Origin: Psammoneis japonica | Taxonomy: Eukaryota | Reading direction: 5' to 3' | Assembly (NCBI GenBank): GCA_008632985.1 | Contig: QPGO01000076.1 | Coordinates: forward strand, 1 to 64,000 | DNA: 64,000 bases | Part shown: positions 5,881 through 64,000 of the stretch, one piece after another | How the letters are laid out: each line of letters starts with the position of its first letter | Position numbering within the stretch: position 1 is the stretch's first letter | Made by a program: the position numbers and the translations under genes | The notes under the pieces: generated by a model | The model's input: only the letters and a program-made list of their open reading frames with translations | Databases searched by the model: none | What the model was told of the DNA's origin: nothing

Positions 5881-5924
5881 CACTCTAACTTGCTTCAGAA
5901 AACAAGCATTTTTCATAACCATTA

Positions 5925-12200: not shown

Positions 12201-12409
12201 CCTTGGTGCACTGGCAGTTGCTGACTCCTTTTCCACCACACCCAGGACTTGAGCCAAGAAATTCCCATCAGCAGTTGCTGGAGTTGCTCCACATGTCCAG
12301 GTCAGACATGAGCCAAGTCAACTGCAAGGGGGGAGGCTCAAACCACTGAGTTGAAAATTTAGCATGAATGAGTCCACTGCCAGTGACGTGGAAGAGTCCC
12401 ACCAAACTG

Positions 12410-14200: not shown

Positions 14201-14429
14201 ACACATCTACAGTGTCTCACGCATCATGCATTGCTCATCGCTTCTCGAATCACTGTCATGCCATGATGACAGAGACGGATGAGGCCATGTGAAACGTGCT
14301 GCACAAGGAATCCAATCACAGAGAAGGAGGCGCAGGTGGGAAATCTCACAGACCCCATTTGTCAATCATGCCACCTCTTCTCAAAGTGTCAGACAGGTGC
14401 TTGTTTTTTGTTTTGACAACAGAGAACTT

Positions 14430-32760: not shown

Positions 32761-32769
32761 CACGCATCG

Positions 32770-35700: not shown

Positions 35701-35830
35701 GACTGGTTTTCAAATCTGTCGCGGGTCAGTCCTCTCTCTCGTGATGCGGCTCCTCTCTAGCCCACCAGAGAGCAGCAATAGTCTGCTGCCAGCAGCTCCA
35801 GACACAGAGAGCACAGTGGGTCTAGAGAGG
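32770..35830. other. TpA-depleted hypermutated block 2
   Basis: Very few TA; Tyr-poor overlapping ORFs; contains the 33410-34050 repeat and a (CT)n(CA)n run at about 35366-35396. Confidence 0.85.
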
Positions 35831-39700: not shown

Positions 39701-40045
39701 AGTGAAGTCTTTCTGACTGTAATGACGAACGATAGTGCAGCTAAGAGAAAAAGTCGGACGCTATTCACAGCGTCATTGCCGCGATCGCAGAAATTTTAGC
39801 AGAAACACATACAGAAAAAATCGCTTTTACTGTACTGTTACAGTAAAAAACCGAATTGAGTCCTTATTTTTGCCATATGTTGAATCGCCATTTTTTGCCT
39901 CACATTGCCCTAAAAACTGACCACCTAGCTTTTCATCATGTTTAAACAAGTTCTTTGATGACAGTTGGTTGTGAAAAGGGCTTGGGATTAGGTCTGGTTT
40001 CTTGCGACCTCCGAGCATTGCACGCAACACACTGCGAAGCGTCCA

Positions 40046-40577
40046 ATGCACAACTCTTTGAATGGGCTCTTAACTCTCTGTGTGCTTGGTTTGAAATGCA
40101 ACGAGCGACTGAGTTTCGCCATTTTTTGTTGTGAATGCATGCTGCCTCCACCAAAGTCTCTGGAGTCATCTCATGTCATTTTTGGGCACTTGCTGAATCC
40201 AAACCTGCTTGAACATTGCAGCGCTCTGTTGGCATGTCTGCCAGCATGTTGATGATGATTCCAACAAGCCAGAAGGTCACGAAGAAGTCCCAGTTGCAGA
40301 TTTGGGATTTGCAATGAATCTGAGTGGGCATGAGGATGTTGTTCACGGAGGTGTTCTTGCCTTGATCATTGAAGATTCCATGGGTTTTGCTTTTGAATCA
40401 GCGGGAACACACGTGGCCTTTGCAGCCAATCCAAACATCAACTGCTGCCATCAGTCCCCGCCAGTGTGTCTGCCGTGCTGCGGATGCATCACAAGGAATC
40501 CAAACGGAAGTGTGTTGTGTGCCAAAGGATCAAGCCTTTTCATTTTGCCAAAGGACCAAAGTCAAAGTGATGGATGA
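40046..40577 (+). pseudogene. Hot-dog-fold (PaaI/THEM4-like) thioesterase pseudogene
   Basis: LSGHEDVVHGGVLALIIEDSMG...AFAANPNINCC corresponds to family motif GH..VHGG..A..D..G...T.NLNINY; frameshifted. Confidence 0.7.
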
Positions 40578-43500: not shown

Positions 43501-43979
43501 ACATCATTGATCATGTGCCGCAACTGTGCAAATGTCAGTGGGATTGAGGCACAGACGGAATGGGCATGCGTCAGTGTCAGAATGTCTGGGTGAAGCTGCA
43601 ATTTTATTTGACTGTTTCAGCCAATGGGAGTGTGTGTGCCAGGAATTTAAAAAGCGACTTCTTGTGCAAAAACCCATGAGAACAGGTGTGTCTTCTCAAA
43701 AGGTCACATTGGAGAGTTGTCACTTCTTCATGATGGAGCACACATGCACCATGCCGAACATGCATGGACAAGGGACCGCACCATGCCAAAGCATGGAGAG
43801 GGATGAGGTGAGTTTGAAATCAGTGAAATGCAAGCCTGTGGCAGTTGACTGACAACCATTGAGGCTCAATGGGGACGGTGCAGGGATGAGACAGTTCACA
43901 GGACAATGCACAGGTTGAAACCGTTGTGCAACAAAGCAGCAGTTTGGCAGTGATGAGAGGGACTCTCACATCATCATTG

Positions 43980-44800
43980 ATGGAAGAACAAGATGACATG
44001 ATGAGCAAACGACAAAAGAAAAAGCGACACAACAAAAAATGAATGACTGAGACAAGATTGTCTTGGAGAACTGCTGCAAGAAGACATTGTTCAGACAGCA
44101 CAAGTTTCTGAATGACAAGGCCCTGAACGACAGCAAGGGAAGAGTGGTGGACACAGTGCTGTCCAAGCCAAATGCACCCAAAGAAAAGAGAGCGCAAATT
44201 TGGGGCATGTCGAAGGACAAGGTGTGAAGTGCGAAGGCAGACAACAAGGAAGAGGAACATTGTGAGTGGGAAAATGAAGAAAGAATTTTTCAGCAAGTGA
44301 TGGAGTGACACGAAAATGGTGGCATGAAGAACAACTGACACACGTGGTTTCATGTGTTGCGAATGGACAGAGGGTGTCTGGATCACAACAAGAAGAACCC
44401 ACAAGGAAAAGACAAGATGCTGACTCTGGCAGAAATGCAAGAGGGAAGGGACTGCATGATGGCACAGACACATTTCACCCTCCACTTCCTGCCCATCGTG
44501 GTGGGAAAGACATGTTGGCATTGGCGAGCAACAAGGCATTCGGCCTGCCAATTTTGGAAAACAATTGGGACAAATGGACATGCACGCACAGTGGGATGAA
44601 GGAGAAGTTGAAGGTGACAAAAGAAGCAAGCATGCTTCTGGCTTCCGGACCCTGAGCACAGCAGTGGGAAGGGCTGAGAAGCAAAACGGAACCATGGGTG
44701 GAACAAGAGCAGACTGCTGGATGGGTGCAAAACCAACAAATTGCTTGAGGACATCTGCAGAATCCACACGTTTTTGCACCAAAGCTGTTGTCTTCTCAAA
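43980..44800 (+). pseudogene. Degraded coding remnant, possibly transposon-associated
   Basis: Protein-like fragments KIVLENCCKKTLFRQHKFLND, LHFLPIVVGK and SNKAFGLPILENNWDKW across frames; family not identified with confidence. Confidence 0.35.
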
Positions 44801-46900
44801 ACTTGTGCAAAAATGGACTTTGCTGCCAACTGATCAGGTGCATTTCTGCAAATGTGTTGTTCTAAAATGTGCCTGATCAGTCAGCAGCAAAGTCCATTTT
44901 TTGCAGAATTAAAATTCGCTGAGGGCAGATGGACAGACATTTCAATGTTTCTCTTGGTGCTGGTCCACACAATTTCTGCTCATTTTTTCACAATGACCAC
45001 ATGGCACGAAAGATTGCCGTTGAAATTGCAGAAAGGACAACAATGGACAGACCAAGAAGAAGGGGGGGGAAGGAACAAATGACTGATCCGCAAACGGACA
45101 ACAAAAGAAAAATGAAGCTGCGTGAGAAATTGTCAATGCAACAGCATGAATTGGGCACAAGCCAGCTACATTTTTAACGAGGGACCTGCATTTTTAACCT
45201 TGAGTCCAGCGGGATGGGATTTCGTGCTCAAATGAATGACTTGCACGTCGCAGACTCTGGCACAAAAGTGCTTTTCACCAGCCGGCCCGCCAAGATGCAA
45301 CAACGACATTGAAGCTCAAATCATCAACAACTCACTTGGAGACCAGACAAATTCAATGAAGACTTCAATGGCAAAAGACAAAATTGTCATGAGCCAGTCA
45401 CAAAATCTGAAAGCAGTTGTCGACGGAGCTCAAAAATGCTGTCCAACTGTGCAGAACAACATGCAGGGGTGCGCAAGTGAAAACCCAGATGTGTGTCCAA
45501 CATCTGTCCAACACTGGGCTCAAGGTCAATGCAAAAAGTTGGTGTGAGCATCCACATTAAATGCGGCGGAACCCCAAATGCAATGAACCCAAAACCTGCA
45601 TGGAAAATGCGAGATGGCCCGCATTGTTTCATGGCCTCCCAAACAAATTGTTCTCCCCTCTGATGTCACTTGGTTTTCTGGAAATTCGCACTTTGAAGAT
45701 GGTGCTGAGTGCCTCACACTTGCCAACAACAACTCACCATTCACTTGCCACATGTGCAGAATGGAGATGTCCATGGCTTTTTTCTGTGATCCGCCCACCG
45801 GCTTCAATTTTTGTGCACTCCATTTTAGAGCCCACACATGAATGCGCACAAACATGGGCAAAGAACCCCACTTGAACCAGCTTGAGTGCTTCAGCAAAAC
45901 ACACTCAAGACAGGCTTTTTCTTGCCACTTGCATGCTCTCTTGGATGTTTTGCCATGATTTGCTGGCCCAAATTTTCACCCCTCTGTGGAGGGAAAAAAC
46001 TCTTTGTCCCACAACTTCTTCAAGTTGAAAGAGCTGTGAAAAGCCAAGCTTGTGGTTGTGGGGTCAACTTTCCAGGCTCAGGCAGGCTTCTTTCCTGGCA
46101 TTGGCAGCTGGAGTGCTGTTTGGTGTCCACCCTGGCATGCTTTGCTTGTGAGCAATTTGAGCACACAACCAGGGCAAGTTGCCAAGCCTTGTCTGCGACA
46201 ATCTGGCCATGGAGAGATTGTTGCCCCCCAGCCATGCAAAAAATCACCCCTTTTGCTCTGAAGAATGAAGGCACTGTGCAGACCACATCTTCTGATTTGT
46301 CAGTGCTGCTGTCATCAAATGAGCATTGAAAATGACAGCAAACTGGGTGTCACATGCTCGGCAGGCATGGTCATGATGTCGGGCACTCTGGTGTCATGCC
46401 TCCTTCATTCTGACCCAGGCAGTGTGGCTGCATTGCTGTGGGTGCATCATGTGGCAACAGCTCTGACAATGTGAATGAATGACAACCCTGTTGCAGCATG
46501 TAAAGAGAGTTCAGCAGTGACTTAATTGACGCGTGTTGCATTAAAATCGAGATGGAAGTGAGCGTCTCACACAAGGTGCTGGCAGCGCAGCGCAGTGGCT
46601 AATTGGTGTAGGACATGTGCCTAAATATGATTGATCATAGGCACAACTATCACTCAGTTCGGGCACATCATTTTTTTGGGGGTTGATTTTTCATTCTTCG
46701 CAGCGACCACTGACACCTTTAATCCAACAAACGTTCCAAACACAAACTAGTCTAATCTTAAAGGTGTACCGGTACTGGAAGTTCATAGAAAACGACACTG
46801 TTCCTCATTTTGAAGGAAAATGATACCTTACAAGCAAACTTCCCCAGAGAAAGGAGCAGACAATTTTGATGCCTCGTTGCTTGCATGAGCTTCTTTTTCT

Positions 46901-49900
46901 TCAGCTTTCGCTTCGACTTTCGCTCCCGCTTCCACTTTCACTCCCGCTTCTTCTCCTCCTCCTCCTCCTCCTCCTCCTTAGCCCCTTTGTGCCACCTGGA
47001 GTGGAACTCGGCACGCTCGATGGAGTTGAACTTGGTAAAGTGCTGGGTTGACTCGATGGATGATCAGATGGCGACAAAGAAGGAGCACTGCTTGGAGCAT
47101 TAGATGGTGCATCACTTGGAACGAAACTAGGCATACTTGATGGCAAACTACTAGGTTGACTCGAGGGCACCACACTTGGTGAAGCGCTTGGCGTACTCGA
47201 GGGCATGTCTGACGGCGACAATGACGGAGAAACACTTGGAGAAACAGTCGGTGCAGTGGGAGCACTCGATGGTTCATGCGACGGTGACAAAGATGGAAAG
47301 TTACTCGGTGAACCGACGGCTCATCGCTTGGAGTCAAACTAGGCTGGCTTGATGGCATTGAACTCGGTTGGATTGACGGTAATTCGCTGGGGGGAGCACT
47401 TGGCGAACAGGATATTGTAGACAGTCGATAAACATAAACGCGCCCAGGATGCCCACCTCTGTTGAAAGAAGCACCCATCGCCACCGTCCTGGAATCAGCT
47501 GACAACGAAACGGAAACTCCAGCTGAATCACGGAACGCTTTTCCATCAATGTCATTGCCCAACTGCATCCAAGTCGTCCCAGTGAATTGATAGACACGGA
47601 CATGCCCGCCTTCATCATGGTAAGGAGCGCCAAGCGCCACCGTCATTCCGTCTGCTGACAACGAAATGGATCGTCCCAAATTATCACCTTCCACTTCTTC
47701 ATTTATGTCATCACCCAACTTGGTCCAAATTACTCCATCGTAGTGGTAAACACGAGCAAGCCCAAAAGTCTCAAAAAAGCCATTATAGTTGGGGTCAGGG
47801 TTTGGCCAAACGATAGCCCCAATCGCCACCGTCCTGGCATCCTCCGACAAGGACACGGAAAATCCCAATCGTTCACCTGCAGCTTCTCCATCAATGTCGT
47901 TCCCTATCTTGGTCCAACGCGTTCCATCGTAACCGTAAACACGAACATGCCCGGCTTGAAAACCATTGCCACCATTTTGATAAGCTCCAATTGCCACCGC
48001 CATTCCATCCCCTGACAATGAAACGGAATATCCTGAAAGATCACCTGCCGCTTCACCATTGATGTCATCACCCAACTGCGTCCAAGTCCTCGTTCCATTT
48101 ACATTGTATTTATAGACACGAACATGCCCGGCGTAAGTATAATTACGCCCGTTGTACTCGGTGTAAGTACCAATACCATCGCCATTATTGCCGTATGCAC
48201 CAATCGCTACCGTCATTCCATCGTTGGACAATGAAACGGATCCCCCAGAGCTGTCAATTTCCGCTTCTCCATCGATGTCATCACCCAACTTGGTCCAAGC
48301 CTTCGCACCATTTACATTCTTGTATTGATAGACACGAACATGTCCTGCACTACCACCATTGTCATCATTACCTGGAGCACCAATCGCTACCGTCATTCCA
48401 TCTGCTGACAATGACACTGACCACCCAGATTGGTCGTATCGTTCTTCCCCATCAATGTCATCGCCCAGCTGCACCCAAGATGTTCCGCTGTGTCGATAAA
48501 CACGAACATGTCCTATGCTATACAAAATACCATTGCCAGCATTAAATGGCGCGCCAATCGCCACGGTCCTTCCATCAGCTGATATTGAAACCGAATCTCC
48601 AAAAAAATCATTTGCTGCTTCTCCGTCAATGTCTTGGCCTAGCTGCATCCAACTAACACAATCACCAAGAGGCATGAGCGATGGCGCTTCGCTTGGAAAA
48701 TCAGTGGGAGCACTCGAAATCGATGGCTGATAGGACGGCAACAAAGACGGAGCAACGCTTGGAGAAATGGAAGGTATGCTCGACGGTGATCCACTCGGTT
48801 GGCTTGACGGAGTTGCACTTGGTGAAGCACTAGGAGATTGGGATATTGTAGACAATTGATAAACACGAACATGACCTGAATCACGGCCATTCACACCATC
48901 ATTGCGAATTGCGCCTATCGCCACCGTCCGGGCATCGTGTGACATTGAAACCGACCTTCCAGAAAAATCCTCAAACGCTTCGCCATCAATGTCTTGTCCT
49001 ATCTGGTTCCAAGTCGTTCCAGTGAATTGATACACACGAACATGGCCCTTCTTGATACCATCATCATCTTTATTGGCACTAGCACCGATCGCCACCGTCA
49101 TGCCATCATCCGACAAGGATACTGACCATCCAGAACCATCATTTTCCCCTTCTCCATCAACATCTTGGCCCAACTGGGTCCAAGTCGTTCCAGTGAATTG
49201 ATACACACGAACATGGCCCTTCGTGATACCATCATCATCTTTATTGGACACTGCACCAATCGCTATCGTCATACCGTCACCTGACAAATGCACCGATTTT
49301 CCGGACTTATCATTCGCGGCTTCTCCAACAATGTCTTGACCTATCAGAGTCCAAGTCATCATTCCATTTACATTGTATTGGTAAACACGAACAAGACCTG
49401 CACGTTGATATAGAACACCATCAGAACCAATCGCCACCATCATTCCGTCGTTAGACAAGGACACTGAATTACCAGAAAGATCACCATTCCCTTCCCCATC
49501 AATATCCTGGCCTAACTGGATCCAATGCTCTCCAATGAATTGATAAACACGAACATGCCCCGCGTTGATATAAGCACCATCATTCATTGGAGCACCAATT
49601 GCTACGGTTCGGCCATCATTTGACAATGCTACTGACGCTCCAGACCAATCGTTTCCCAGCTCTCCATCAATATCCCGACCCAACTGGATCCAAGACATTC
49701 CAATAAGTTGATAAACACGAACATGTCCGGCATTAAAAATATTGTGACTGTCGTTCCCACGCGCACCAATCGCCACAGTCATTCCGTCCCCCGATAAGGA
49801 CACTGAACATCCAGAATAATCGTCAGCTGCTTCTCCATCAATATCCTGACCCAACTGGATCCAAGCCATTCCAATGAGTTGATAAACACGAACATGTCCA

Positions 49901-50428
49901 GCTCGGTTACCAACCCCATCATTTTCGTTAGCTCCAATCGCAACAGTCATTCCGTCATCTGACATAGAAACGGAATATCCAAATTGATCACCTCTCGCTT
50001 CTCCGTCGATATCCTGGCCCAACTGCGTCAAAACCAGCCAATCTGCAATGGAAAGTTCTCTCTGGTGTTGAGATGAAAGCGACTGACGTAGACTTGTCCG
50101 ATTCGATAAATTATTCCTATCGGTAGGGAAGTATCGTTCGTTTGATAGATCATGATGCGTCTTGAGACGAGAAATGAATGAAGCAAGCATGTAAACTGTG
50201 AGCTTCAGGATTTTGTCTTTGTGAGTACTGCACAAAAGGAAAAGACAAAGTCGGTACGAAATCGGACAATCTTTCGACTTTCGATGATGAATGGCGTAAT
50301 GTTCTTACCTCGTTGCCGCTCACGCTTTTCTTCGTGTCGAAACTGTGATACGCCTTGATCATGGTCATTTCTTTTGCGAGCATGGCAGTTGCCAAAAGGG
50401 TCTTCAGGACTACCGTTGGGAACTTCAT
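46901..50428 (-). CDS. Secreted or surface adhesin-like protein: two 7-repeat FG-GAP-like beta-propellers with Pro/Ser (PSxxPS) mucin-like linkers
   Basis: 14 repeats of W.QLG.DIDGE..D.SG.SVSLS.DG.TVAIGA..N....GHVRVY (7+7). Signal-like MKFPTVVLKTLLATAMLA and 5' intron from 50308. Frameshift near 47305, so the C-terminus is uncertain. Confidence 0.85.
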
Positions 50429-51774
50429 GGCTCTTGACACTAGGTGGCTTCTTGGAGGAAGGTTTGCTTGTGCTTGTCCTTTTCTTCTCGAGGAGGAAAC
50501 ACAACGCAGCGAGGAAAATTCACATCATTAGTACGAACAAAATGAATGATACAGAAGGTAAAATCACTCACCTCGTAACAGCAAGCTGGATTTGTGAAAA
50601 CGAGAGAATTGTGAAGCTCAAAATGAAATAACAACAAACGCAAGCGCGAACCGCGATACCCGCGAACAGCAAACCGCGAACCTGAAGCGAACGGCAAAAT
50701 GATTTGTTTCACACAACAACCTTCAAGCAAAAGCCGCTTGTGCCGGCACATAATTGCTGAATGCTTTGCATGTGAAGCCAGCTGCAAAGGATTTGTTGGC
50801 ACAGCGCCTCAAAACGGCACTGCAACACAGGGAGATGATTGCCGGCATGCATGCGATGGAATGAGGTGAACACAATTACGAAAGAGCTGTCGTGCTCCTC
50901 CTCCGGCCGGCGGAGCATTGATTTTTTATCCTTTGTTCATTTTCACAAATGAATGAGTGCAATGCACGCATGTCCAACAACAATGAGCAAATCCAAAATG
51001 TCACTGAAATGTCCTTCGAAGAAAGACACTCAGAAGAGTTTGTGCCGCTGCCTGCACATCATGCAGTGCAGTGTCAGCCTTCTCATCACTGGCACACAAC
51101 AAAAAAAGCAGACGCGTTTGAACAATGCACCATGGCACAATGTGCTGGCAATGTATGATGGTGTGTCTGAGAATCACCAGCCATGCTTTCCCCTTCGTCT
51201 CACGACAACACCTCTTGCACAGCCGCCTGGCCTCACTCTCCCGCTGCACCCACTCTTGCCCCGCTCGCTGGGGTGCGAGAGACTTTGGTGGTGGGTGGGT
51301 TGGGTTGGGGTTGGGGTCAGCCCACCCAGCACTTTTTTCCCAGTCTTCTCTGCTTTGCTGTCATGCTTTTTGCATCTCTTTTCAACTTTCCTGCTGGGCT
51401 GTGTGGCGGCATCTGTGGCATCCTCTTCTTGGCACTTTGTTCTTTCATGAGACTTTGCCACACCCCAAGAAAGTGTGGTTGCCACGAGTGAGAATGTCTC
51501 ACTTTTTTGTGGTGAAAACTCTTCTCCTGGCCCCTTTGACTGATTTGATGTTTCTTTTGCACCTCTCTGGGTTCAAATGACTCGCCCATTGCTGCTTTCT
51601 GAGCAAGTGTCTCCACTCTGTTGATGGTGTGACAACAACGCTGCTGCTTTGAGTTTGTGGCTCATTCTGAGCTTGTGTTTTCTTGGGGTTGACAAGGGTT
51701 GCCAGGAAAATGCAAACCCGGAAATCCGGGCAGAAATTGGGGAAAACACAAACCCGGAAATCCGCAAAAACCCA

Positions 51775-51960
51775 GACAAATTGATGACAGACATGGACAT
51801 GTCCGGAAGAACCACCACTGCCATCATTGCAAGGAGCACCAAGCACCACCGTCATTCCATCTGCTGACAAAGAAATGGATTGTCCCAAATTGTCACCTTC
51901 CACTTCTTGGAATCAGCTGACAATGAAACAGATTTTCCAGCTGAGTCACGGAGCGCTTTT
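51775..51960 (-). pseudogene. Hypermutated, rearranged 3' fragments of a propeller-gene paralogue
   Basis: EGDNLGQSISLSADGMTVVLGAPCND matches 47580-47700; 51909-51960 matches 47490-47543. Confidence 0.8.
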
Positions 51961-52099
51961 GTTTGTGCAAATGACATTTAGACAAATGACTGTGATCTCT
52001 TCTGCTCTTGACTCTGCAGTCCACATGTCACTTGGGGTGGAGTTGGTGGCAAAGCGGCAGCAAAAGGAGGTGATTCCCTGTCCACCAATTCTTCAGCAT

Positions 52100-54564
52100 G
52101 CTCCACTGAGAAGTGCGCGTGCTGCCAATTTTCTGCAGCTTCCCTGCAGAAGTGAACAAACTGTGTGTTTGTTGAATGGCTCAATGCCAAAGACACCACA
52201 AGTTGTTGAACAAACATCCAAGACAATGACCAACATCAGTCTTGCATGCTTTTTCCATGGTGTTGTTGTTGTCCCTTTCACACAGCTGAGGTCGTGTGAA
52301 CTCAAACTCAGCACTCGCGCATCCACAAAAAACAGCGTGCTTCTGTGCTTGGCGAAACAATGCATTGTCAGGGTCCAGGGCCAACATCAGCAATTGATGG
52401 ACAGAGAATGTGTGCTGTTTGCAGACACTGGTCTCTCCCTGCACTTTCAGAGCTGCTTTGCAGACACGACAACCATCATCATCTTCAACTGAAAAAGGGA
52501 GAATCAGTCTTGTTCCCCAATGTCCAGCCATGTCAACAAAGTCACCACTGCGCAAGTCAATCTTAGAGATCATCATTCAACAATTGAAAATCAGTGTCCA
52601 TCAGCAATGCAGTTCAACAATGAAAAAAGAATTTGCAAATTGGTGCGCACCGTGTGCCTGGGTTCTGTCTCGATCGGATCAAACCGTTTGTTTGGCTTCA
52701 GTTTTCTCATCATTCCAATGCAGACAAATTGCAAAAGCCAATGTGGGGTGCAACACCACAGAGCCACTCTGCCATTTTCTCTTTTGACATGCCGTGCCGA
52801 TCCTTCCACAAGTCGCAAGAACACTTGCATTCCAACCAAAACAATGACTGCTTTCAAGACTGTCTTGCACGTTGCTGCATTGCACTCAACTTTCCCAACC
52901 ACATCTTCTGAATCAAGGACAGACCAAAGAAACTCTTGTCCTTCTTTGTTCCAGGCGTTGTCCATGCTCATGTCTGTTTTGCAGTCTGGGTTCAACTCCT
53001 GTGTTGTTTCTTCGACAGTTGACTCAGCAATGGGCCGCACCTCTTCATGCAGCTCTTTCCATTTTGCAACTTTCAACAACACAGGCAACACTTGCTCCAA
53101 CTTGTTCAAAAACGGACGGGTTGGCTCTTGATTGCAGACAAACATTTGCGATTCCTTGACAATCTTGATTGCCCGGCTGCACGCAATTGTGATTGGGAGA
53201 ATTTTCTCTGAATCAATTGGTGGCAGAGGAACCAAACTTCCATCTTGGAGGGGCTCTTGTGATGGATCGGGATGTTGCACCAACTCCCGTAGAACCACAA
53301 TGTCTTCTTTCAACAAAACCTCTGGTCTCTCAGATTTCTCTAAAGCCACAGCCTTGCTTTTCTCATCGTGGTCCTCAACAATTGCACAAGCCTTTTCTTT
53401 GTCAAACTCATTTGGGTCATTGACAAAGAGCAATTGCTTGTTGGTGCAACTCTTTTCAAATGCATTGCGCTCATCATCATTTGTCTCTCTTGCTGCCAGA
53501 ATCATGAAATCAAGTTCCAGCCTGGCCATTTCTGCAGTCATCATGCTCTGACCATCCTTGAACACTCTTTTTCCATTTTCATCACAGGTCCCCATTTGAC
53601 AGAAATGTTCCTTTCCATTCTTTCTTAGATGGACATTTTGAAAGGGAATGAAGAGTGCTCGAAACTTCTTGTCTCCCACTTCACCGCAAGGAAAAAGCAA
53701 ATGGGAGACTTGCAAATGGTGCCCATCTGCAGATGGTCAAGATCCCTCTTCAACGATTTTACTTTGATGCAAATGTTCACCACTTCTTTCGTCTTGTGAT
53801 TGATGCAAGTGTTGTTTCCTTTTTGACTTGCATTCTCAGTGCATCCAAGTTCAACTGCAATGTTCTTCAACATTTTCTTGGCACAGGAGAATCCATCAGA
53901 ACCAAGCTTGTCAATCAAGTCCACATCAAGACTTCCATCCTCCTTGATGCAACCTTTTTGGCAAGAACGACTGGCTCATTTTTTGATCCAGTGGGTGCTC
54001 CATTGTTTTCGGAAGACACCTCATTCCAATGGCGGGTCTTCACTCTTTCCCTCAACTTCTTGCCCACTGCACATTTTAGAGAAGTCAGGTAAAATCAAAA
54101 AATGATCAGTTCACAAAAAATGTTCAAACAGCAAATTCATCGCGGGACAGACATTCATCATGCTGCAGACACTTGCACACGTTGTCCGCCTCAATCCTGT
54201 TGAGATCATTGACAAAAGCTCTTTGCAAAATTCTTGCTTCACCAATTCTCTCCCCATTGGCAGCAAAGAATGTGTCGCAATGATTGACCTTTTGTTTCAA
54301 ACAACCAAACTCTTTGGCAATCTCATTGAGCAGAGACACTCTTTCGTCTCTGCTTCTATGAAGTGAGCCAATCAACTCCATGTCAACAGAGTTGTCCTCC
54401 TTGACACTGCACTGTTTCGCGACCAGCACAATCTCTTTGTGTGAGCCAGTTTGTCCATTTGCAACATTTTTCACCACAGAGGCAGAAGCAGTGGTGGCAG
54501 CTGCAACAGGAGGAGCAGCGGCGGTTGTGGCTGCTTTCTCGATCCTGTGTGAGCAGTTTTCCAC
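52100..54564 (-). pseudogene. Degraded long gene (Tyr-free) with possible C-terminal HNH-endonuclease-like motif
   Basis: ORFs 54124-54564, 53625-53924, 52591-53715 (374 aa, no Tyr) and 52181-52576; FSVHQLLMLAL...DVGHCLG.LFNNLW resembles VHRLVA.AF...VDH..G...NN. Confidence 0.4.
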
Positions 54565-55622
54565 ACAAAGTTTTTGACGGTCTTAAGAGGTTTTCTCTGC
54601 CTTTTGTGACTGGACGGCTTTTTGTTGGGTGAGTGCTCCAAAGCCTCGGAAGCCTCTGAAGAAGATGAGGAATCCATTGTCTTTTGGCTTGAGCAGGCTG
54701 CAAATGCCGGTGTTGTTCATGAACAATGAGAGCAGCAACAGGCGAGTCATCCGATCTTTGCCAATTACCACTTGCCTGGTGCTGAGTGAGTTGCCAGTGT
54801 GTGCGGACCACGTCATGCAATTTCCACTTGCTGGGTGCCACCGCAAGCGAGAGAGCAGATCATCCAAAGCTGGTGTGAACAGCATGACTGAGCGAGACAG
54901 CCAGAAAACATTGAGAACCGACTGTGAGCGAAAGCAATGTCTCCATGGAGGATGAGGCCATCACAAACGAGCATCCCGAGGCTGCTTTGGTTGAATTTTT
55001 GTTTGCTGAATCAATGAATGTAGTTCGTTGTGCATCGAACTATCTTCTCAGGAAAGAACTGAAGATTGTTGATGAAATCTTTGGGATTGTCTAGAAAACA
55101 AGGAGCCAGTCATTTCTGCAATGACATCATTTCGTGACGGCATGATTGAGCATGATGGTGTGGACAAGGCCACCCACACGCTGATCCAAACAATTGATGT
55201 TGCTCTACAGAATCGTTTGCATTTCGCTGTTTGGCAAAAACAAGAAATCAAGGAATTGTTCTTCCAGAAAAAACTGCTTGAGAGCAAAGCCCACGATGTC
55301 TTCACGCAGGCAATGTTTGAATTGGAGACTGTCCTCGACATCATTTCCAGCTGGAATGCGGAAAGTGCCTTCTTGATGCACAAGGAGTGCACAGCTGAAT
55401 TGGAGGCATCCAAGAAATGGTTTGTTGAGAATCGGCGCTGCAAGGAATTTCAGGCTGTCCGCATCTGTGACAAATCACACTGCTGTGAAGAAATCCATTG
55501 CAGCAGCATGGACGATGAATCGTTTTTGACAGACCAAGTGGGCGACAAGCTTTGTGAATGAGAGGAAGAGCTAGTTGCATCAGTTGCATCTGTGAATGTA
55601 GAGGACACCTGCGGCACGTCTG

Positions 55623-55857
55623 TGCGACAACTCTCGTCTGAGAGCTGGGAGATGTTGATGGAAGGTGAGCAGCAATCGCACTGCCAGCAGCAGGGCTGAC
55701 AATGGCGATGGAATCGACAAAGCTGCCAATGTCTTGTTGCACTGGGTGTTGCAATTGTGAGCAGAAAAAGGGGAGAAGTTCTCCAAAAGAAGGGCGGGAA
55801 ATCGCGTGCGTGAGTGAAGAGCGCACGAATCGCGCATGAGTTCGCACTGTGTTGACA
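55623..55857 (-). repeat. 3' LTR
   Basis: Direct repeat of 61696-61930, preceded (minus strand) by the PPT. Confidence 0.95.
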
Positions 55858-55866
55858 CTCCCTCTC
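55858..55866 (-). promoter_or_regulatory. Polypurine tract
   Basis: GAGAGGGAG immediately before the 3' LTR. Confidence 0.85.
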
Positions 55867-55877
55867 GAACAAAGAAG

Positions 55878-58800
55878 CTGCCAACCACAAAGCAACTTGC
55901 AAATAGACTCAAATTTGACCGTGACGAGTCCTTTTGTTAAAATGTCAGCGCATTGCAGGTCTGTTGCGATCTTAGATGCAGCAATTCGGTTTGGTTTCAG
56001 CTGTGAACAAAACCAGCGACACTTGATTGCGCAGTGCTTGGACCTTGGCGTAACTTGGCCAGGTTCCATGTTAGCCAGAGTCAAGGCTCCAGCATTGTCC
56101 TCCCACACGGTGGTCCTGATGGTCTTGGTGGTCCCCAGACCAACTCCAATGCCTTGGGAGATGGCTTGCACAGTGCGAAGAAAGGGAAGGACAGTTTTCA
56201 TGCATGTGGAGAGAGAGCGCTGCACTCTGCCTCCATGGTTGAGAGTGCGATCTCGGGTGCAAGCTTGCCAGACCAGACAACAGGACAGTTTGAAATGCAA
56301 GCAACAAATCCTGTTCGGCTCTTGACACAAGCCGGGTCTTGCATGTCTTCATGCGGCCACAATCCAGCAAAATCTGAGTCAACAAAAACATCAATGTTGA
56401 AGTCCCCAGATGGCTTGAGGATCAAACCTTCCTCCAGTGCACCCTTGAGGCATCGGCCAATCCTCTCGAGGGCTTGTTCATGCAAGCAGTGCAGACTGTG
56501 AACAAATCTTGTGGCAGAGCTAAGTGCATGGGTGATGTCAGGCCTTGAATGGCCCTGGAGATGCTGGAGCATGCCAACAACACTGGCGCAATTGAAAGCT
56601 CCATTTGGTGGGTTTCCATCGGTGTCCTTGACCAAATGGGCAGCCAGTGCCCCCATGTTTGGGCCTTTGGCAGATGGCCCACATTGAGGGCTTCGACGAC
56701 ACGCTTGGCTGGGCCGCTCTGGGTGAGCTTGACAGTGCCATTGTCGGTGTTGCAATGGATGTGGACGCCCAAAAAACCTGCGACGGAATCCTCGACTTTG
56801 ATGGCCAGACCGCCATCAATTTTGAGTTTTTCAATCACTTCGTTGATGCACTCTTGCTTCAGTGAAAAGAACAATGTGTCGTCAACATGCACAAGGCAGA
56901 TGACCTCATCGGACACGAAAAGGCACGGATCAACATCATCTTGAGATTGAAATCCGACGTCTTCAAGTTTTGATTTGAGGTGCAGGAAAAAGTTGCGTGG
57001 TCCTTGCTTGAGACCATGCATGGTCTTCTTCAGTTGCAGCACTTTGTGTGGGGCTTTGTGTGACCGCGAGGCATTTGCATGAACACGCCAGAGCGTTCCC
57101 GTTCTTCAGGCATCATGGTGTCCCATTTGGGATCTTCATCAATCGGAGCATGCACGAAAGCCATGACATGATCAACTTGCTTCATGGAGAACTCAAGAAT
57201 TTGAGAAAGCATGAGCATCAGCCACGCTGTTGTCCAATTGACAACTGGAGCAAAGGTGTCAAAACAATCAACACCTTCCAATTGCTTGTCACCGCAGACA
57301 CAGAATTGGGCTTTGTGTTTCTGGATTGACCCATCAGGGTGCCGTTTGCATTTGAAGGCCCAAGTGGATGGCAGAACATTCATCCAATCTTGGCGGTCAA
57401 CCTCCTCCCAAGCATCTTTGCCGTTGACAAGGGAGTCAATTTCGACATCACAAGCCTTGAGATGGGCTGCACGATCGGGCTCACTCACAGCTTCTTCCCA
57501 AGCAGGGTTGTCGGCAGAATTTGCATTAGCTGCAAGAGCCAGAGGATGCATTTCTTCGAGTGTGCCGTGAACTTGATCGGTGTTTTTGTTGAAAAGGTTG
57601 ATCACAGCACGCAAGTCTTTTGATTGGAGTGCGTTTGTAACACTGTCCCACTTCTTTGGGGCCATCAGAAACTGCTTGTTGAGTGTCTCTGATTTGGCCA
57701 TTCGTTTGGGATTCTTGCAGGCTGCTGGCAACTCGTTTGGAGGAGTGCGAGTGTCAGCCATCATGGCTTCAACAAGGCGGTCCGGTTTCTTGATGGTGCG
57801 GCGCTGCGAGTCCAAGTGGCAGCAGCAGGAGCATTCGGCGCCGCTTCAGTGGGCTCAGCGATGTCTGAGCCAAGATCCAGGTCTTCAGGCAAGTCGTGAT
57901 GGTCAACTAGGGACAAATCGTTGTTGCTGTTGTCGCTGGACTCATCGATTTCGACTCCCTCTGGAGCCTCTGAAGTTGCAGATGCCAGATCATCGATGAT
58001 TCAGGATCAGCAGGAAGCGCTCCCTCTGGAGCTGTGATGGAAGAGGTTGGTTGAGGTTTAGTTTTGCCAGGAGAGGCGCGCTGTTGGCGGCGCAACTTCC
58101 ACGCCTGACGATGGGTCTCATGGTGGCGGCGCTCTTTGGGCATCAGCCAATCGTCATGCAGTGCGGGCAAGTGATGGCGAGGGTCCTCAGAAGGCTCGTG
58201 GTCAAGAGCGTGGTTGACCATGGAGTCAGCAGCAAGCAGGGACTCCCAAACGTCAGCGGAGAAAGGGATGTCCTGAAAGTGCCCCCCAGAGTCACTGTTG
58301 GGCACGGTGGAGAAGTGGTTGTTGTAGACCACATGGTGTTGAGGGCCAACACAGCCTGTCACAAGGTTGAGGATCAGGTCAATGTTCATGGAATGAGCCG
58401 GGGAGATGCCAAGGTGTTGGCCGCGATGGCTGCGCAGGTCCCACTTCGAAACTTTCTTGCCATCCTGCAGTTTGGGATCTAAAACATGCACAGGACAGCC
58501 CCACACTTGCAAGCACTGTAAATGCATGCAGGAATCAAAGCATTGCTTGGAATGGATCTCGACAGGAGCAGTGCGAGTGTCAACTTTCAGAAGATGATTC
58601 CACAAATGAGCGGCGTGAGTCATGGCAAAAGGCCAAAGTTCCAGATTGGCGGCATCAGGCCACATGAGGACGGCATGGAGCAACGCAGATCTTGCCCATG
58701 AGGTGGTGGTTTGAATGGAGCACTCAGCAATGCCGTTTTGATGATGGGCGCCAACACCAGAGAAGTCTGTTGTCTGGTGGTTCTCTTTGAGATCTTGCAT

Positions 58801-59300
58801 GAAGGCCTCAGAGCCAAAAGGGATGTTGTCAGCAAGGTGTTGCTTGACCTGGACCCCAAATTGGTCACCAAGCTGCTCAAAGGCACGCTCAGCACATGTG
58901 GTTTCACCTGCAGTGAGACCAACTTGATGGGTCAGGAACATGCAGCTAGAGGCGTGATCGACACTGGTTGATGGAAGACGGCCAGGGACGCGGCTGATGT
59001 GCTGGTCAACAGAGACGCATTGACCTGGAGACAAATCGCCCCCTCTCACAACACCATGGGCAGAGGTTTCGATGTGCTGCGGCGGTCCGGAGTGCGCCGC
59101 TTTTGTTTGGCCAGTTGACAGGCGGCACATGATGGAGGTGCACAACCTGCCACCATGTCAGATTTGGGTTTAAGGACTTGGGATTTGGTGGGATCCCTTG
59201 GGACAGCACTGAGATGTTGGATGTGTTGGAAGCCAGCGTGACCAAGTTTTTGATGAAGCAGCAGAAGCTCCTTTTGACCTGGACGTTGGATGAAGGAAGG
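55878..59300 (-). pseudogene. pol: Copia pol (integrase, reverse transcriptase, RNase H), frameshifted; protease not recognisable
   Basis: LHQKLGH...CAACQLAK; VDHAS; ADN..F; GAHHQNGIAE; WGCPVHVLDP.LQDG; WAFKCK; DTFAPVV.W; LKK.MHGLKQ.PRNF; CLVHVDD; VDSDFAG; ALSTMEAE; EDN.GA; ADILTKGL; LLCGW. Confidence 0.95.
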
Positions 59301-59709
59301 AACAAGTGGGGTCTCTTCGTGGGAATCGAACTGGATGACGGTCCAAACGACGAACTTGCACGTGATGACATGATTTGTGGTGCATCCGATGATGAAGAGG
59401 ATGATGATGTGGGCTGTGTTCCAAGGACAAGGTGACAACAAACCAAGGCATGTCATCGCATGAGAGCGAAGGATTCTTGGAAAAGAGCAGCAAGCAGAAA
59501 AACAACCCACCTGCTGAAACAAAAAGGAACTGCAAAATGGCAGAGACGGCTGCTTCTCCTCCCTCTGCAAGAATCTGGAGAGCAAACCACAAGAGGAGGG
59601 ACTGCACCGCAGTCATGCAAGCCTGGATGTCCCTTCCAGAAAAGGTTGTTTTGCTGAAAAGCGAAAAAGGGTGGGCTGCATGCTCAAAGAAGGAGGCGTG
59701 CCCGAAGCT

Positions 59710-61230
59710 TCAGGTGAAGGAAGCAAAGAGACCAGTGATGGTCTCGGCGACCTCGCGCTTGGCATTTGCAACAGCCACTTTGCGGTCCGGATGCAGAGCG
59801 GAAGCAGGGGCCGGGGCAGGAGCAGGTGCAGGAAGTGCTGGGGGCACAGTGGCAGCACCAGCAACTTGAGCAACAGGGCACAAGCGCTTGGTCTTGTGTC
59901 GACAGCAGTGATCTTCACCATCAATGTTGCGGCGACTGTCATTGTTCTTCTCGGCGTCAGTTGAGGGTTGCCATTTCTTGGGAATGGTCTTGGTTGGCTT
60001 GCCATCCTTCCTGGAAGAGGCATCGTTTTTGTTCTGAGCCCGTTTCACGTCAAAAAACAGTTTCTTGTTTGCACGCACTCGTGCATCGTCGACGGGCTGC
60101 TTGCAGTCGGAAAGAGGATGAGGGCCACCACAATTGAAGCAGTTGACTCCTCCAGCAACAAATGCGGTTGCATTCTTCTCAGCAGTCACGCTGGACCACT
60201 GGTCAGAAGATGCAAGGGCCGGGTGTTGAGCCTCCACGAATTCAAGGAGATCAGGCACGGATGTGGTGCTGATGGTCGGACCACTGGACTCAAGCTTGGA
60301 GATTTGAGAGTCCTTGGTGAGGTGGTCAAAAAGGGAATTAAATTCCGGGATGCTGGAGGTCTGGAACACCTTGGTGAGGTTTTCCATGAAATCAGAAGGA
60401 ATGACAGACTTGCCTTTCTGATCCTGGAGGTTCTGGAGTCGAGTGCATCCACCACGGATGAGTGAGACAACTTTGCCAACGTCTTCACCATCAAAATTGG
60501 TGATCTTGAGCAAGATCATGTTGGCGACCAAATGACGAGCAGCCTCCTTGGAGTTGCTCTGCAGGAATTTCATCACAAGCAAGAAAAAGAGAGGTCCGCC
60601 TTGTTCTTCTTGCGGATGCTTGAGGCATGTCTCGTTGACTTTCTCCTGGAGGGCACAAGAGGCGTTCCTCTCAAAACAGTCACAGGCAAGACGAAGGTTT
60701 TGGCTGGCTGAGGTCCCATCAGGGTCCTCGAGTGTCGTAGAGTGCCACTTGTTGCTCTTCACGACTTCGGCTTCGGTGATCGTCAAATGCTCGGTGCAAA
60801 GATCACGAGTCTTGAAGGTGACAGGATCGACAATTTGGAAAACATCGTCCACATCGCACTTGACGTGGTTCGACCGCATGGTCGAGATGGACATGGCCAG
60901 ATCACAAGTGTCTTCAAGTTTGTCCGGATCATTGATGTTGAAATTTAAGAGGTCAAAACGCGTCTGCAGTTTCGCAGCAGCTTGCTGGAATGAGTCATTG
61001 AGCTTGTCCGGGTCCAACTTGTTCCTCTGCTGTTTAGTGCAGAGAGCAGCAAGAGCATCCATGGACGTTTTAGGGGTCACGCGGACTTTGACTTTCCTGC
61101 TGTTTATCTCCACCTCAGCAGTCGTGGTGCTGGCAGGCGGAGTCGGCGGAGTCGGCGGACATGGAGGCGGAGTCGGCGGACTTGAAGGCGGAAGAGGTGG
61201 ACTCGCTGATGGGCTGGTCATGCGAGTCAC
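59710..61230 (-). pseudogene. gag: Copia gag-like ORF with zinc knuckle
   Basis: EQGGPLFF, FQTSS.PEFN..F, CFNCGGPHPLSDC; 506 aa without a single Tyr. Confidence 0.85.
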
Positions 61231-61681
61231 TCAAGGAAATGCAGGTTCTTTGGATGACGGTCAGCAGTTTGACCGTTGTCCATCCGGAAGTGAGCCCATT
61301 GTCAAGTTGTGCGGGTGACAGTGGCCTGACGGTCTCGAATTGTTGCTGTGCGACGAAAGTTTCAAACTTCGTTCGTCATCACAATGCGGTCGCCGACACA
61401 AAAATCTGCGACGGTCAGTTCTCTGTCAATGACAGGCCAAGATGGTCCGGCTCCAGCTCTGTCACGGTTCTGTCATTCGCGTTCAGATGCAATGCGATGA
61501 ACTGAGTCGGCTTCTTGCAGTTGAAGCTCTTGTGGTTGTTCAATGAGGTCGTCCAGTGTCTCAGAACTGCAATTGGACATCAACGTTCTGCACACAGAAT
61601 TGCACGTAAAAATGTACAGAGCTCAATTCTCGTCCACCGGAGAGAAAAGAGATGAGGCGCAGGAGTCGTCAAGCATGATGC

Positions 61682-61695
61682 TTGGGCTCCTGACC
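61682..61695 (-). promoter_or_regulatory. Primer-binding site (degenerate copia-type, half-tRNAiMet)
   Basis: GGTCAGGAGCCCAA directly after the 5' LTR resembles copia GGTTATGGGCCCA. Confidence 0.6.
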
Positions 61696-61930
61696 TGTGA
61701 CAACTTCGTCTGAGAGTCAGGAGATGTCGACGGAAGGTTGAGCAGTGATCGCATTGCCAGCAGTGGGGCTGACAATGGCAACAGAATCGACAGGGCTGCC
61801 AATGTCTTGTCACACTGGGTGTTGTAATTGTGAGCAGAAAAAGGGGAGAAGTTCTCCAAAAGAAGGGCGGGAAACCGCACGCGCAAGTGAAGAGCGTGCG
61901 AGTCGCGCATGAGTTCGCACTGTGTTGACA
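61696..61930 (-). repeat. 5' LTR
   Basis: Direct repeat of 55623-55857. Confidence 0.95.
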
Positions 61931-62059
61931 GTCTGGACTGGACACAGAATTGATTCCGCAATCCCCTCTGGAGAGCAGGAAGAAGAAAAAGAGTTCAAAG
62001 CAGAACTTCAAAAATGCAGGTGGGAAACATTGAAACTGCAGCATGTGATGATGTGTTTC

Positions 62060-64000
62060 AAATCAATGTCTTGACCCAACTTGCTCCAAGCTGTGCCAAT
62101 GAGTTGACAAACACAAACATGTCCGGCATTGACAATGTTGTGGCTGTCGTTCCCACGCACACCAATCACCACACAGTCATTCCGTCCCCCGATGAGGATG
62201 CTGAACATCCAGAACAATTGTCAGCTGCTTCTCATCAACATCCTGACCCAACTGGATCCAAGTCATTCCAACAAGTTGATGAACATGAACATGTCCAGCT
62301 CAGTTGCCAACCCCATCATTTTCGTTGGCTCCAATTGCAACAGTCATTCCGTCAGCTGAAATGGAAATGGAACATCCAAATTGATCACCTCTCGCTTCTC
62401 CATCGATGTCCTGGCGCCCATCTGCGTCCAGACCAGCCAATCTGCAATGGAAAGTTCTCTCTGGTGTTGAGATGAAAGCCACTGACACAGACTTGTCCAA
62501 TTTGACAAACTGTTCCCATCGGCAGGGAAGCATCGTTTGTTTGACAGATCATGATGCGTCTTGAGACGAAAAATGAATGAAGAAAGCATGCAAACTGTGA
62601 GCTTCAGGATTTTGTCATTGTGAGCACTGCACAAAAGGAAAAGACAAAGTTGGTGCAAAATCGGACAATCTTTCAACTTTCGATGATGAATGGTGCAATG
62701 TTCTTCCCTCTTTGCCACTCAAGCTTTTCTTCATGTCGAAACTGTGATGCGCCTTGATCATGGTCATTTCTTTTGCGAGCATGGCAGTTGCCAAAAGGGT
62801 CTTCAGGACTGCTGTTGGGAACTTCATGGCTCTTGACCCCAGGTGGCTTCTTGGAGGAAGGTTTGCTTGTGCTTGTCCTTTTCTTCTTGAGGAGGAAACA
62901 CAATGCAGTGAGAAAAATTCACATCATTGGTGCGAACAAAATGAATGACACAGAAGGTAAAATCACTCACCTCGCAACAGCATGCTGGATCTGTGAAAAC
63001 AAGAGAATTCTGAAGCTCAAAATGAAACAACAACAAATGCAAGCACCAACCGTGACACCTGCGAACAGCAAACTGTGAACCTGAAGCAAACGGCAAAATG
63101 ATTTGTTTCACACAACAACCTTCGAGCAAAAGCCGCTTGTGCTGGCACACAATTGCTGAATGCTTTGCATGTGCAAGCCAGCTGCAAAGGATTTGTTGGC
63201 ACAGCACCTCAAAATGGCACTGCAACACAGGGAGATGATTGCCGGCACCGGCATGCATGCAATGGAATGAGGTGAGCACAATTGCGGGAGAGCTGTCGTG
63301 CTCCTTGTCTGGCGGAGCATTGATTTTTTATCCTTTGTTCATTTCACAAATGAGTGAGTGCGGTGCATGCATGTCCAACAACAATGAGCAAATCCAAAAT
63401 GTCACTGAAATGTCCTTCGAAGAAAGACACTCAGAAGAGTTTGTGCCACTGCCTGCACATGCAGGCAGTGCAGTGTCAGCCTTCTCATCGCCGGCACAAC
63501 AAAAAAGCAGACGCGATTTGAACAATGCACCATGGCACAATGTGCTGGCAATGCATGATGGTGTGTCTGAGAATCACCAGCCATGCTTTCCCCCTTGTCT
63601 CACAATGACACCTTTTGCACAGCCACCTGGCCTCACTCTCCCGCTGCACCCACTCTTGCCCCACTCGCTGGGGTGCGAGAGACTTTGGTGGTGGGTGGGT
63701 TGGGGTTGGGGTCAGGGTCAGCCCACCCAGCACTTTTTTCCCAGTCTTCTCTGCTTTGCGGTCATGCTTTTTGCATCTCTTTTCAACTTTCCTGCTGAGC
63801 TGTGTGATGGCAACTGTGGCATCCTCTTCTTGGCACTTTGTTCTTTCATGAGACTTTGCCACACCCCAAGAAAGTGTGGTTGCCACGAGTGAGAATGTCT
63901 CACTTTTTTGTGATGAAAACTCTTCTCCTGGACCCTTTGACTGATTTGATGTTTCTTTTGCACCTCTCTGGGTTCAAATGACTCACCCATTGCTGCTCTC
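62060..64000 (-). pseudogene. Hypermutated duplicate of the 5' part and upstream region of the propeller gene (49670-51600)
   Basis: Collinear alignment; GYSVS->GCSIS, GHVRVYQ->GHVCVCQ, KAYHS->KAHHS; small indels. Confidence 0.92.

Follow-up and report, generated by a model that had tools for sequence, protein, structure and literature searches.

In fungal repeat-induced point mutation (RIP), CpA is converted to TpA and the GC content is lowered. A hypermutation directed at TpA itself was recently described in the alga Bigelowiella natans. According to the available part of the preprint (Mettrop et al., bioRxiv 10.64898/2026.01.13.699255), 230 of the 231 mutations in two integrated viral regions of mutation-accumulation lines were A>G or T>C, each of the 230 being located at TpA. 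The same part reports that TpA-poor coding sequences were enriched in reverse-transcriptase and DDE domains, and the authors point to an ADAT2 homologue. Here we analysed a 64,000-bp stretch of the diatom Psammoneis japonica (assembly GCA_008632985.1, contig QPGO01000076.1, positions 1 to 64,000; the window), which contains a complete Ty1/Copia long terminal repeat (LTR) retrotransposon of 6308 bp on the minus strand (55623–61930). A host process acting on DNA very probably converted nearly every TpA to TpG or CpA after insertion of this element, on silent domains. Comparison of duplicates, LTRs and codons showed the direction of the change, its specificity for TpA, its action on both strands, its timing after insertion, its domain structure and its independence of CpG loss.

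The LTRs of the element begin with TG and end with CA, and a perfect 5-bp GTCTG flanks them on both sides. The integrase match (57982–59145) was upstream of the reverse transcriptase match (56656–57800) on the minus strand, which is the Copia order, and two pieces matched Pfam PF07727 (Copia-type RVT_2) with E values of 8e-9 and 9e-10. By tblastn, pol was split into at least five frame segments, and its C-terminal part matched at element coordinates 5466–5921 (window 56635–56180) and 5819–6220 (56282–55881). An integrase piece had 275 homologues at E ≤ 1e-3, the best of them 53–54% identical, and the named relatives were all from diatoms (Nitzschia, Fragilaria and Cylindrotheca). No relatives were found in viral_contigs, and no further Copia piece was found in the 64-kb window. 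The Copia element was once functional and is now dead.

A first-pass annotation, made from the letters of the DNA, had described the Copia proteins as systematically stripped of tyrosine, and the loss of Tyr proved real. Gag (506 aa) contained no Tyr, as that annotation had read it, against 14.6 expected (P(0) ~4e-7); its 100 best homologues had a mean Tyr content of 2.9% and at least four Tyr each. The six gag/pol reading-frame pieces contained one Tyr in 1726 residues against ~48 expected (P(≤1) ~6e-20), the Tyr share in relatives being ~2.8%. His and Cys were high in gag plus pol, at 4.5% and 3.8%; the median values of 270 homologues were 2.7% for His and 1.3% for Cys. A column was taken as conserved when at least 60% of the homologues agreed. 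At the 27 conserved-Tyr columns the element now had 15 His (CAY), 8 Cys (TGY), 3 Phe and 1 Tyr. Of these columns, 20 were in pol (11 His, 5 Cys, 3 Phe and 1 Tyr) and seven in gag (4 His and 3 Cys), so that His or Cys stood in 16 of 20 and in 7 of 7, in agreement with the proposed change of TAY to CAY or TGY.

The altered pol motifs named by the annotation were all found at their places, and they were compared with 46–60 homologues aligned to the DNA. The reading of these motifs as lost Tyr was borne out for YVDD, where CLVHVDD had His (CAT, 56887–56889) and 52 of 52 homologues had Tyr, and for LYGLKQ, where MHGLKQ had His (57016–57018) and Tyr was present in 51 of 51. Thus the relatives did not already carry His or Cys at YVDD, and since intact relatives have Tyr at the conserved-Tyr positions generally, the refuting condition set by the annotation failed. 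His also stood in WGCPVHVLD (58486–58488; Tyr in 56 of 60 homologues), and Cys stood twice in RSKHCAIKC (56031–56033, Tyr in 43 of 47; 56019–56021, Tyr in 28 of 47). At the His of GQHLG (58414–58416), 32 homologues had Tyr and 27 had Phe, out of 60. The Cys of GVDCFDTFAP (57264–57266), however, was ambiguous, with Phe in 30, Tyr in 21 and Cys in 3 of 55. After the terminal LLCGW a CAG was read (Table 1), and 41 of the 46 homologues reaching LLCGW stopped exactly at the W codon, indicating that this CAG was a former stop codon, as had been suggested for a TAG-type stop.

Among the other residues, 17 of 19 in pol were conserved at 72–88%. Arg was conserved at only 53% and was replaced by Cys, Gln and His, replacements that would fit loss of CpG. 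Ile and Met were conserved at ~60%, with Val as the commonest replacement (Ile to Val 5, Met to Val 2); judged from the codons, a change of Ile or Met to Val would mostly need A to G at the first codon base, and A>G changes, taken over all conserved columns together, mostly followed a T.

The loss of Tyr is collateral damage of the loss of the dinucleotide TpA. Among 772 conserved Copia columns, 178 differed and 97 of these were explained by a single transition, 44 at TpA and 32 at CpG, in both cases yielding TpG or CpA. A 5′ T preceded the changed base in 26 of 32 A>G changes (a 5′ A in two), and a 3′ A followed it in 18 of 20 T>C changes. The C>T changes had a 3′ G in 17 of 22 cases and the G>A changes a 5′ C in 15 of 23. 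Both strands were hit about equally, with 26 A>G and 18 T>C in the sense strand of Copia and with 45 CA and 35 TG in the duplicate pairs described below. The whole element contained 24 TA against ~215 expected at the window's normal TA level, and its sense strand contained 11 TAA, 4 TAG and 136 TGA triplets. The target was therefore the TpA dinucleotide, neither Tyr nor enzymes as the first-pass annotation had implied; non-coding DNA, pseudocopies of host genes and half of the window were affected too. Its remark that the process is an efficient way to kill enzymes holds as a consequence, but a purpose is unsupported. Selection against TA or Tyr was rejected as an explanation, because non-coding DNA and pseudogenes were affected alike.

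A dinucleotide scan of the window revealed four sharp-edged TA-free blocks covering 31,853 of the 64,000 bp (Table 1). They contained 107 TA, against 1338 in the other 32,147 bp. The ratio of observed to expected (o/e) TA was 0.05–0.07 in the blocks and 0.60 in the rest of the window, and the corresponding values were 0.18–0.53 and 0.97 for CG, 1.5–1.9 and ~1.17 for CA and TG, and 1.02 and 1.12 for TC. In the block holding Copia the ratios were 0.06 for TA, 0.53 for CG, 1.64 for CA and 1.54 for TG. A loss of TA plus CG amounting to 6.8% of dinucleotides matched a gain of CA plus TG of 6.4%, and the GC content was 49.2% in the blocks and 47.1% outside. At the block edges TA density changed over less than 100 bp, from almost none to one TA in ~20 bp, and these edges were 190–780 bp from the open reading frames (ORFs) of the neighbouring genes. 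Among the TA surviving in blocks, TTAA was enriched 4.0-fold (20 versus 63 outside) and TTAG/CTAA was also enriched; ATAT occurred 0 times versus 94 outside and GTAT/ATAC once versus 180. This suggests, tentatively at 107 sites of which some are perhaps new TA, that a 5′ purine or 3′ pyrimidine beside TA favours targeting.

Per kb, the blocks had 1.3 TAA and 1.0 TAG, the rest of the window 9.8 and 9.9. ORFs of 110–380 aa were open in all six frames of the blocks; 93 ORFs of at least 110 aa overlapped the blocks, a few of which extended into the Copia ends. No credible family match was obtained for any of those tested, so that they would be called as spurious genes. A Pfam search with 83 stop-to-stop ORFs of at least 110 aa in the blocks detected only a remnant of an ADP-ribosyltransferase (ART), a single FG-GAP repeat and two matches that were weak and at chance level, and a protein atlas search with the two longest block ORFs gave no match. 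No LTR or inverted-repeat pairs were found framing the non-Copia blocks.

Two duplicated stretches of the window, each with one hypermutated copy, revealed the direction of the change. Copies A and B contain the 5′ part and upstream region of an FG-GAP repeat gene, and copies C and D an ART gene region (Table 1). In the 994 aligned positions of A/B that are TA-normal in A, copy A had 36 TA and copy B had one; 18 had become CA and 16 TG, none were reversed, and 28 CG of A were TG or CA in B, with 19 transversions in the same 994 positions. In the second pair, copy C had 58 TA and copy D eight, 27 having become CA and 19 TG with one reverse change, and 33 transversions were counted in 1629 aligned positions. 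Pooled over both pairs, 93 TA had given 45 CA, 35 TG, no CG and five others, and eight were kept. The other dinucleotides were unchanged at 74–92% of sites (TC 89.6%, AA 87.9%), except CG at 60%. At least 91% of the TA sites were converted, all in one copy, versus ~2% transversion divergence; ordinary neutral decay and native composition were rejected on this ground. The edge of the TA-free domain in copy A was inside the duplicated stretch, ~400 bp upstream of the FG-GAP ORF. Beyond this edge, A/B (50661–51596 in A) had been TA-free before its duplication; the genic part is TA-free in B only. Copia sits between copies A and B, 126 bp from copy B.

The LTRs of one element are identical at insertion. 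The two Copia LTRs now differed at 31 of 238 aligned positions, nearly all by transitions, and eight of the differences were TG/CA swaps. Such a swap represents two independent resolutions of one ancestral TA or CG. The 928-bp stretch of A/B that was already TA-free in both copies showed one swap despite 22 CpG changes, indicating that the LTR swaps were mostly former TA. The LTR swaps and the duplicate pairs together place the process at the DNA level, on both strands and later than insertion or duplication. Conversion ends once a site is no longer TpA.

Material outside the window assembly was also compared. A public run (X1) contained 64% of the exact 31-mers of 54001–64000. Short X1 contigs at a depth of ~60 matched the TA-free flank (54001–55740) with 10 substitutions and four small indels, and the TA-free stretch 54001–55670 was at single-copy depth (~60). 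Copia was at a depth of 200–660 against ~60 in the flank, indicating that its family is multicopy. Among the 40 best-supported of 414 differences between X1 and the window, X1 had CG where the window had CA or TG at 13 places and TA where the window had CA or TG at three places, and the opposite member of a TG/CA swap was present at three sites (six places). These types of difference are as expected if copies or alleles mutate independently. The flank at 54034–55613 contained 10 differences between X1 and the window, four of them CG versus CA and one a TG/CA swap (55297–55298); if the flank differences are allelic, the process was still at work once the haplotypes had separated. Small indels between the window and X1 contigs were also present at or near the pol frame changes (56209–56222, 56650, 57994 and 59039), and the pol frameshifts may be private to this Copia copy or may be assembly errors.

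Among 83 environmental loci encoding integrase relatives (80 from metagenomes and three on misbinned "bacterial" contigs), two were TA-free. L049 had one TA in 2158 bp and kept none of eight conserved Tyr. L021 had no TA in positions 1–1568, which encode a Copia integrase, and normal TA density began abruptly at 1569 and continued to 5391; it kept none of 12 conserved Tyr, which had become 5 His, 4 Cys, 2 Asn and 1 Trp. In eight control loci of normal TA density, 12–24 Tyr were kept. The switch at 1569 is either a domain edge as in the window or the joint of a chimeric contig. The TA-free loci speak against an assembly artefact and indicate that the process is at work in wild populations, on other Copia families.

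Loss of CpG to TpG or CpA was slower than, and separable from, loss of TpA. Copy D kept 87 CG versus 106 in C, while 50 of 58 TA were lost. The Copia element had a CG o/e of ~0.5–0.9 at a TA o/e of 0.05, and the 1568 bp of L021 without TA had a CG o/e of 0.72–0.92. In the pooled pairs, 64 of 159 CG differed in the block copies, and 56 of these 64 had become TG or CA. Older blocks were depleted of both TA and CG. The CpG component resembles the ordinary decay that methylated cytosine undergoes. Methylation of diatom transposons is known and, in the available part of the source, depends on DNMT5 in Phaeodactylum (PMC9998398).

These results can be arranged in one course of events. A functional Copia element would have been inserted with its Tyr codons, two identical LTRs and a GTCTG target duplication. 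Transitions from A:T to G:C at either strand of the palindromic TpA would then have followed, sites once hit being left alone. Whole silent domains, not retroelements as such, would be targeted, with blocks filling the gaps between genes; non-coding DNA and pseudocopies of two host genes would be included and their partner copies left untouched. A slower and separable decay of CpG to TpG or CpA would proceed in the same blocks. Loss of Tyr (TAY), loss of TAA and TAG, and many changes of Ile, Met, Lys, Asn and Ser would follow automatically. As to chemistry, a TadA/ADAT-like deaminase working on DNA may turn the T-preceded adenine into inosine, which is then read as G; we believe this proposal about as readily as we doubt it. 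Natural substrates of TadA/ADAT have U before the edited A. As to targeting, we lean, with some reserve, towards silent chromatin rather than sequence homology.

Several points weigh against this account. The deaminase is a guess from the U-A context of TadA/ADAT and ADAR substrates. Both polarised targets other than transposons are duplicates, so a homology trigger is possible, and the non-Copia blocks have no recognisable transposon domain, so that "silent foreign DNA" is assumed there. X1 is probably from the same sample as the window and its technology is unrecorded, making it weak independent support. Both TA-free environmental loci are short metagenome contigs, one of which (L021) may be a chimera. 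The genome evidence comes from one 64-kb window.

Other chemistries were weighed against deamination of adenine in DNA. Since the element is a retrotransposon, its RNA or cDNA might have been hyper-edited before integration by an ADAR-like (A-to-I) or APOBEC-like activity, and ADARs prefer a 5′ U, a preference also given in the available part of bioRxiv 10.64898/2026.01.13.699255. This is extremely improbable, because A>G (26) and T>C (18) both occurred on the sense strand, so that both strands were hit, because eight TG/CA swaps separated LTRs that were identical at integration, and because flanks, non-coding DNA and two host-gene duplicates with promoter-side sequence were equally TA-free. 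The main rival for the chemistry is oxidation of the TpA thymine by a TET/JBP-type dioxygenase to 5-hydroxymethyluracil (5hmU) or 5-formyluracil, which would be mispaired with G or misrepaired and turn T into C. On double-stranded DNA, T>C at TpA is indistinguishable from A>G at TpA, and in dinoflagellates, as the available part of PMC11572971 has it, 5hmU takes the place of T with a preference for TA and TC, is concentrated on transposons and aids silencing. TpC was unaffected in our blocks, however (o/e 1.02 versus 1.12; 89.6% unchanged in the duplicate pairs). In addition, 5hmU pairs normally with A, so that some further step would be required to reach ~91% conversion. The literature yielded no report of diatom 5hmU, though 5hmU and diatoms were not searched together. 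We regard oxidation as unlikely. Since TpA and CpG were lost in the same blocks and errors of Pol eta favour WA motifs (W, A or T), repair of deaminated 5-methylcytosine (5mC) could also be imagined to bring in a polymerase resembling Pol eta, whose errors at WA would turn A:T into G:C in the way known from immunoglobulin somatic hypermutation. But ApA was barely affected (two A>G with a 5′ A versus 26 with a 5′ T; AA 87.9% unchanged), and TpA loss was complete where CpG was nearly intact (copy D and L021), which leaves error-prone repair with very little probability.

The trigger, too, could be different: sequence homology between repeats, as a mirror image of RIP, instead of the state of the chromatin. 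The Copia family is multicopy by its X1 depth (200–660 versus ~60 in the flank), both polarisable targets other than transposons are duplicates, and DNMT4 enzymes, relatives of the RID factor of fungal RIP, occur in many diatoms according to the available part of PMC9998398. Against this, copy A kept 36 TA in 994 bp and copy C 58 TA in 1636 bp despite 89–92% identity over 1.6–1.9 kb to their hypermutated partners. RIP mutates both copies. Moreover, 54001–55670 was TA-free at single-copy depth (~60), and the block edges followed neighbouring ORFs at 190–780 bp and were not at the ends of homology. Because the partner copies were untouched, a single-copy stretch was TA-free and an edge fell within copy A, a domain-wide silent mark fits better than a RIP-type trigger, and we think it rather improbable that homology was the signal. 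Finally, modified bases in silent DNA might have been miscalled in a long-read assembly. Small indels beside T runs between X1 and the window do suggest long-read assembly of the window, the X1 technology being unrecorded. We give an artefact almost no credence, since X1 held 64% of the 31-mers and its ~60-depth contigs reproduced the TA-free flank, two unrelated metagenome contigs carried the same signature, and TA loss was mirrored in amino-acid changes of the pseudogenes, with normal partner copies in the same assembly.

Table 1. Positions of the Copia element, the duplicated copies and the TA-free blocks in the window.
Feature	Position	Strand	Remarks
Left target-site duplication GTCTG	55618..55622		read directly; identical to 61931-61935
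3′ LTR, 235 bp, TG...CA	55623..55857	-	self-blastn versus 61696-61930, 87.7% identity; ends read
CAG at ancestral pol stop position	55878..55880	-	W codon 55881-55883 is the last in 41/46 homologues
pol C-terminal part (RNase H region), two reading frames	55881..56635	-	tblastn
Reverse transcriptase (RVT_2), two reading frames	56656..57800	-	Pfam PF07727, tblastn; HVDD replaces YVDD at 56878-56889
pol N-terminal part and integrase	57982..59285	-	tblastn
gag ORF, 506 aa, no Tyr	59710..61230	-	ORF; 959 homologues at E ≤ 1e-3
5′ LTR	61696..61930	-	self-blastn, ends read; differs from 3′ LTR mainly by transitions
Right target-site duplication GTCTG	61931..61935		read directly
Copy A, partner of B	49666..51596		TA-normal to ~50660, TA-free beyond
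Copy B, hypermutated, 5′ part and upstream region of FG-GAP repeat gene	62062..63997		91.7% identity, 1945 columns
Copy C, partner of D, intact ART ORF 31346-32221 (minus)	31125..32760		TA-normal
Copy D, hypermutated, of ART gene region	12557..14208		89.2% identity over 1659 bp; in-frame stop
TA-free block 1	9351..18251		TA o/e 0.05, CG o/e 0.30; holds ART pseudocopy
TA-free block 2	32751..35801		TA o/e 0.07, CG o/e 0.18
TA-free block 3	39951..46551		TA o/e 0.05, CG o/e 0.36; no Pfam transposon domain
TA-free block 4, holds Copia, reaches window end	50701..64000		47 TA in 13,250 bp

The FG-GAP repeat ORF (46978–50304, minus strand) encodes 1108 aa and appears intact, with internal repeats 72–79% identical. 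The adjoining TA-free block holds one degenerate FG-GAP repeat remnant (51775–51909) and a hypermutated copy of the first 213 residues of this gene (62062–62703). The ART gene on the minus strand was intact and matched Pfam ART and ADPrib_exo_Tox; its nearest solved relatives were protein-modifying ARTs such as Vis, HopU1 and ExoS. The ART pseudocopy (12774–13625, minus strand) lies 18 kb off and encodes a protein 87.7% identical with one in-frame stop. The data suggest no link between ART and hypermutation. Block 1 contains a direct repeat of ~650 bp (11507–12152 versus 14382–15116, 75–82% identical) at a spacing of ~2.9 kb. The plastid gene GcpE/IspG of the methylerythritol phosphate (MEP) pathway was located at 23285–25495 on the plus strand in three ORF pieces, presumably separated by introns, and the piece at 23608–24414 was 85–91% identical to diatom proteins. 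Given this match and the diatom relatives of Copia, a Bigelowiella origin of the window was rejected. A single N is present at position 2699.

Among the major primary producers are the diatoms, whose genomes are rich in transposons, and little is known of how they restrain these by means other than cytosine methylation. Erasure of TpA as a mutational defence would account for dead elements with open frames and would push silent DNA to higher GC. The loss of TAA and TAG produces long spurious ORFs in six frames, which mislead gene finders and transposon annotators. Duplicate and LTR pairs provide a cheap, purely computational screen for any genome. Base-editing research would also take an interest in the enzyme if it is a natural deaminase of adenine in double-stranded DNA.

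No report of TpA hypermutation in diatoms was found in the literature searched, and the available parts of two papers on diatom transposons (PMC2806351 and bioRxiv 10.1101/2025.10.24.684338) do not mention it. Among known systems, 5mC deamination at CpG shares the CpG to TpG/CpA component with the blocks of the window but leaves unexplained the TpA loss, which is faster and present where CpG is intact. APOBEC3/ADAR hyper-editing likewise produces clusters of deamination-type transitions that inactivate mobile elements; it acts on single-stranded cDNA or RNA, strand-asymmetrically and before integration, whereas here both strands and both LTRs independently were hit, together with DNA that is not retroelement. 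The dinoflagellate 5hmU on transposons resembles our case in that a lineage of the stramenopiles, alveolates and Rhizaria (SAR) marks T in TA (and TC) of repeats for silencing, but in the available part of the source (PMC11572971) it is a mark and not a mutational outcome, and TC was unaffected here. Fungal RIP (Neurospora etc.) is also a dinucleotide-specific transition hypermutation of DNA that destroys transposons after integration. Its polarity is opposite: here TpA was destroyed, the CA/TG o/e rose to 1.7 and GC rose from 47.1% to 49.2%. RIP also mutates both copies, in contrast to copies A and C, which keep 36 and 58 TA, and B and D, which keep one and eight.

The closest precedent is Bigelowiella natans. 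As described in the available part of the preprint, A>G and T>C changes there also occur only at TpA, giving TpG or CpA on either strand, in particular regions of foreign DNA, and long-term depletion of TpA is likewise accompanied by enrichment of CpA plus TpG. Bigelowiella is a rhizarian (chlorarachniophyte) and Psammoneis a diatom (stramenopile). The evidence there comes from mutation accumulation and here from fossils of the process (duplicates, LTRs and codons); the TA o/e is 0.45 in the giant-virus region there versus 0.05, near saturation, here; and in the window pseudocopies of host genes were hit too, with a separable CpG decay in addition. At the sequence level the window appears to be an instance of the Bigelowiella phenomenon, foreign origin being shown for Copia only. 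A mutational genome defence of this type has so far been reported in one other alga only, and the TpA-directed hypermutation of silent DNA described there is now found in a stramenopile, which moves the observation from a curiosity toward a wider phenomenon. To the Bigelowiella case the window adds fossil evidence, which bears on the direction and timing of the change, its saturation, its arrangement in domains and its independence of CpG decay. We tentatively propose, as a possibility somewhat short of probable, that diatoms, like Bigelowiella, have an old, SAR-wide defence that edits DNA at TpA, a mirror image of RIP (A:T to G:C) in which a natural DNA adenine deaminase is aimed at silent chromatin, saturates its targets and works independently of cytosine methylation.

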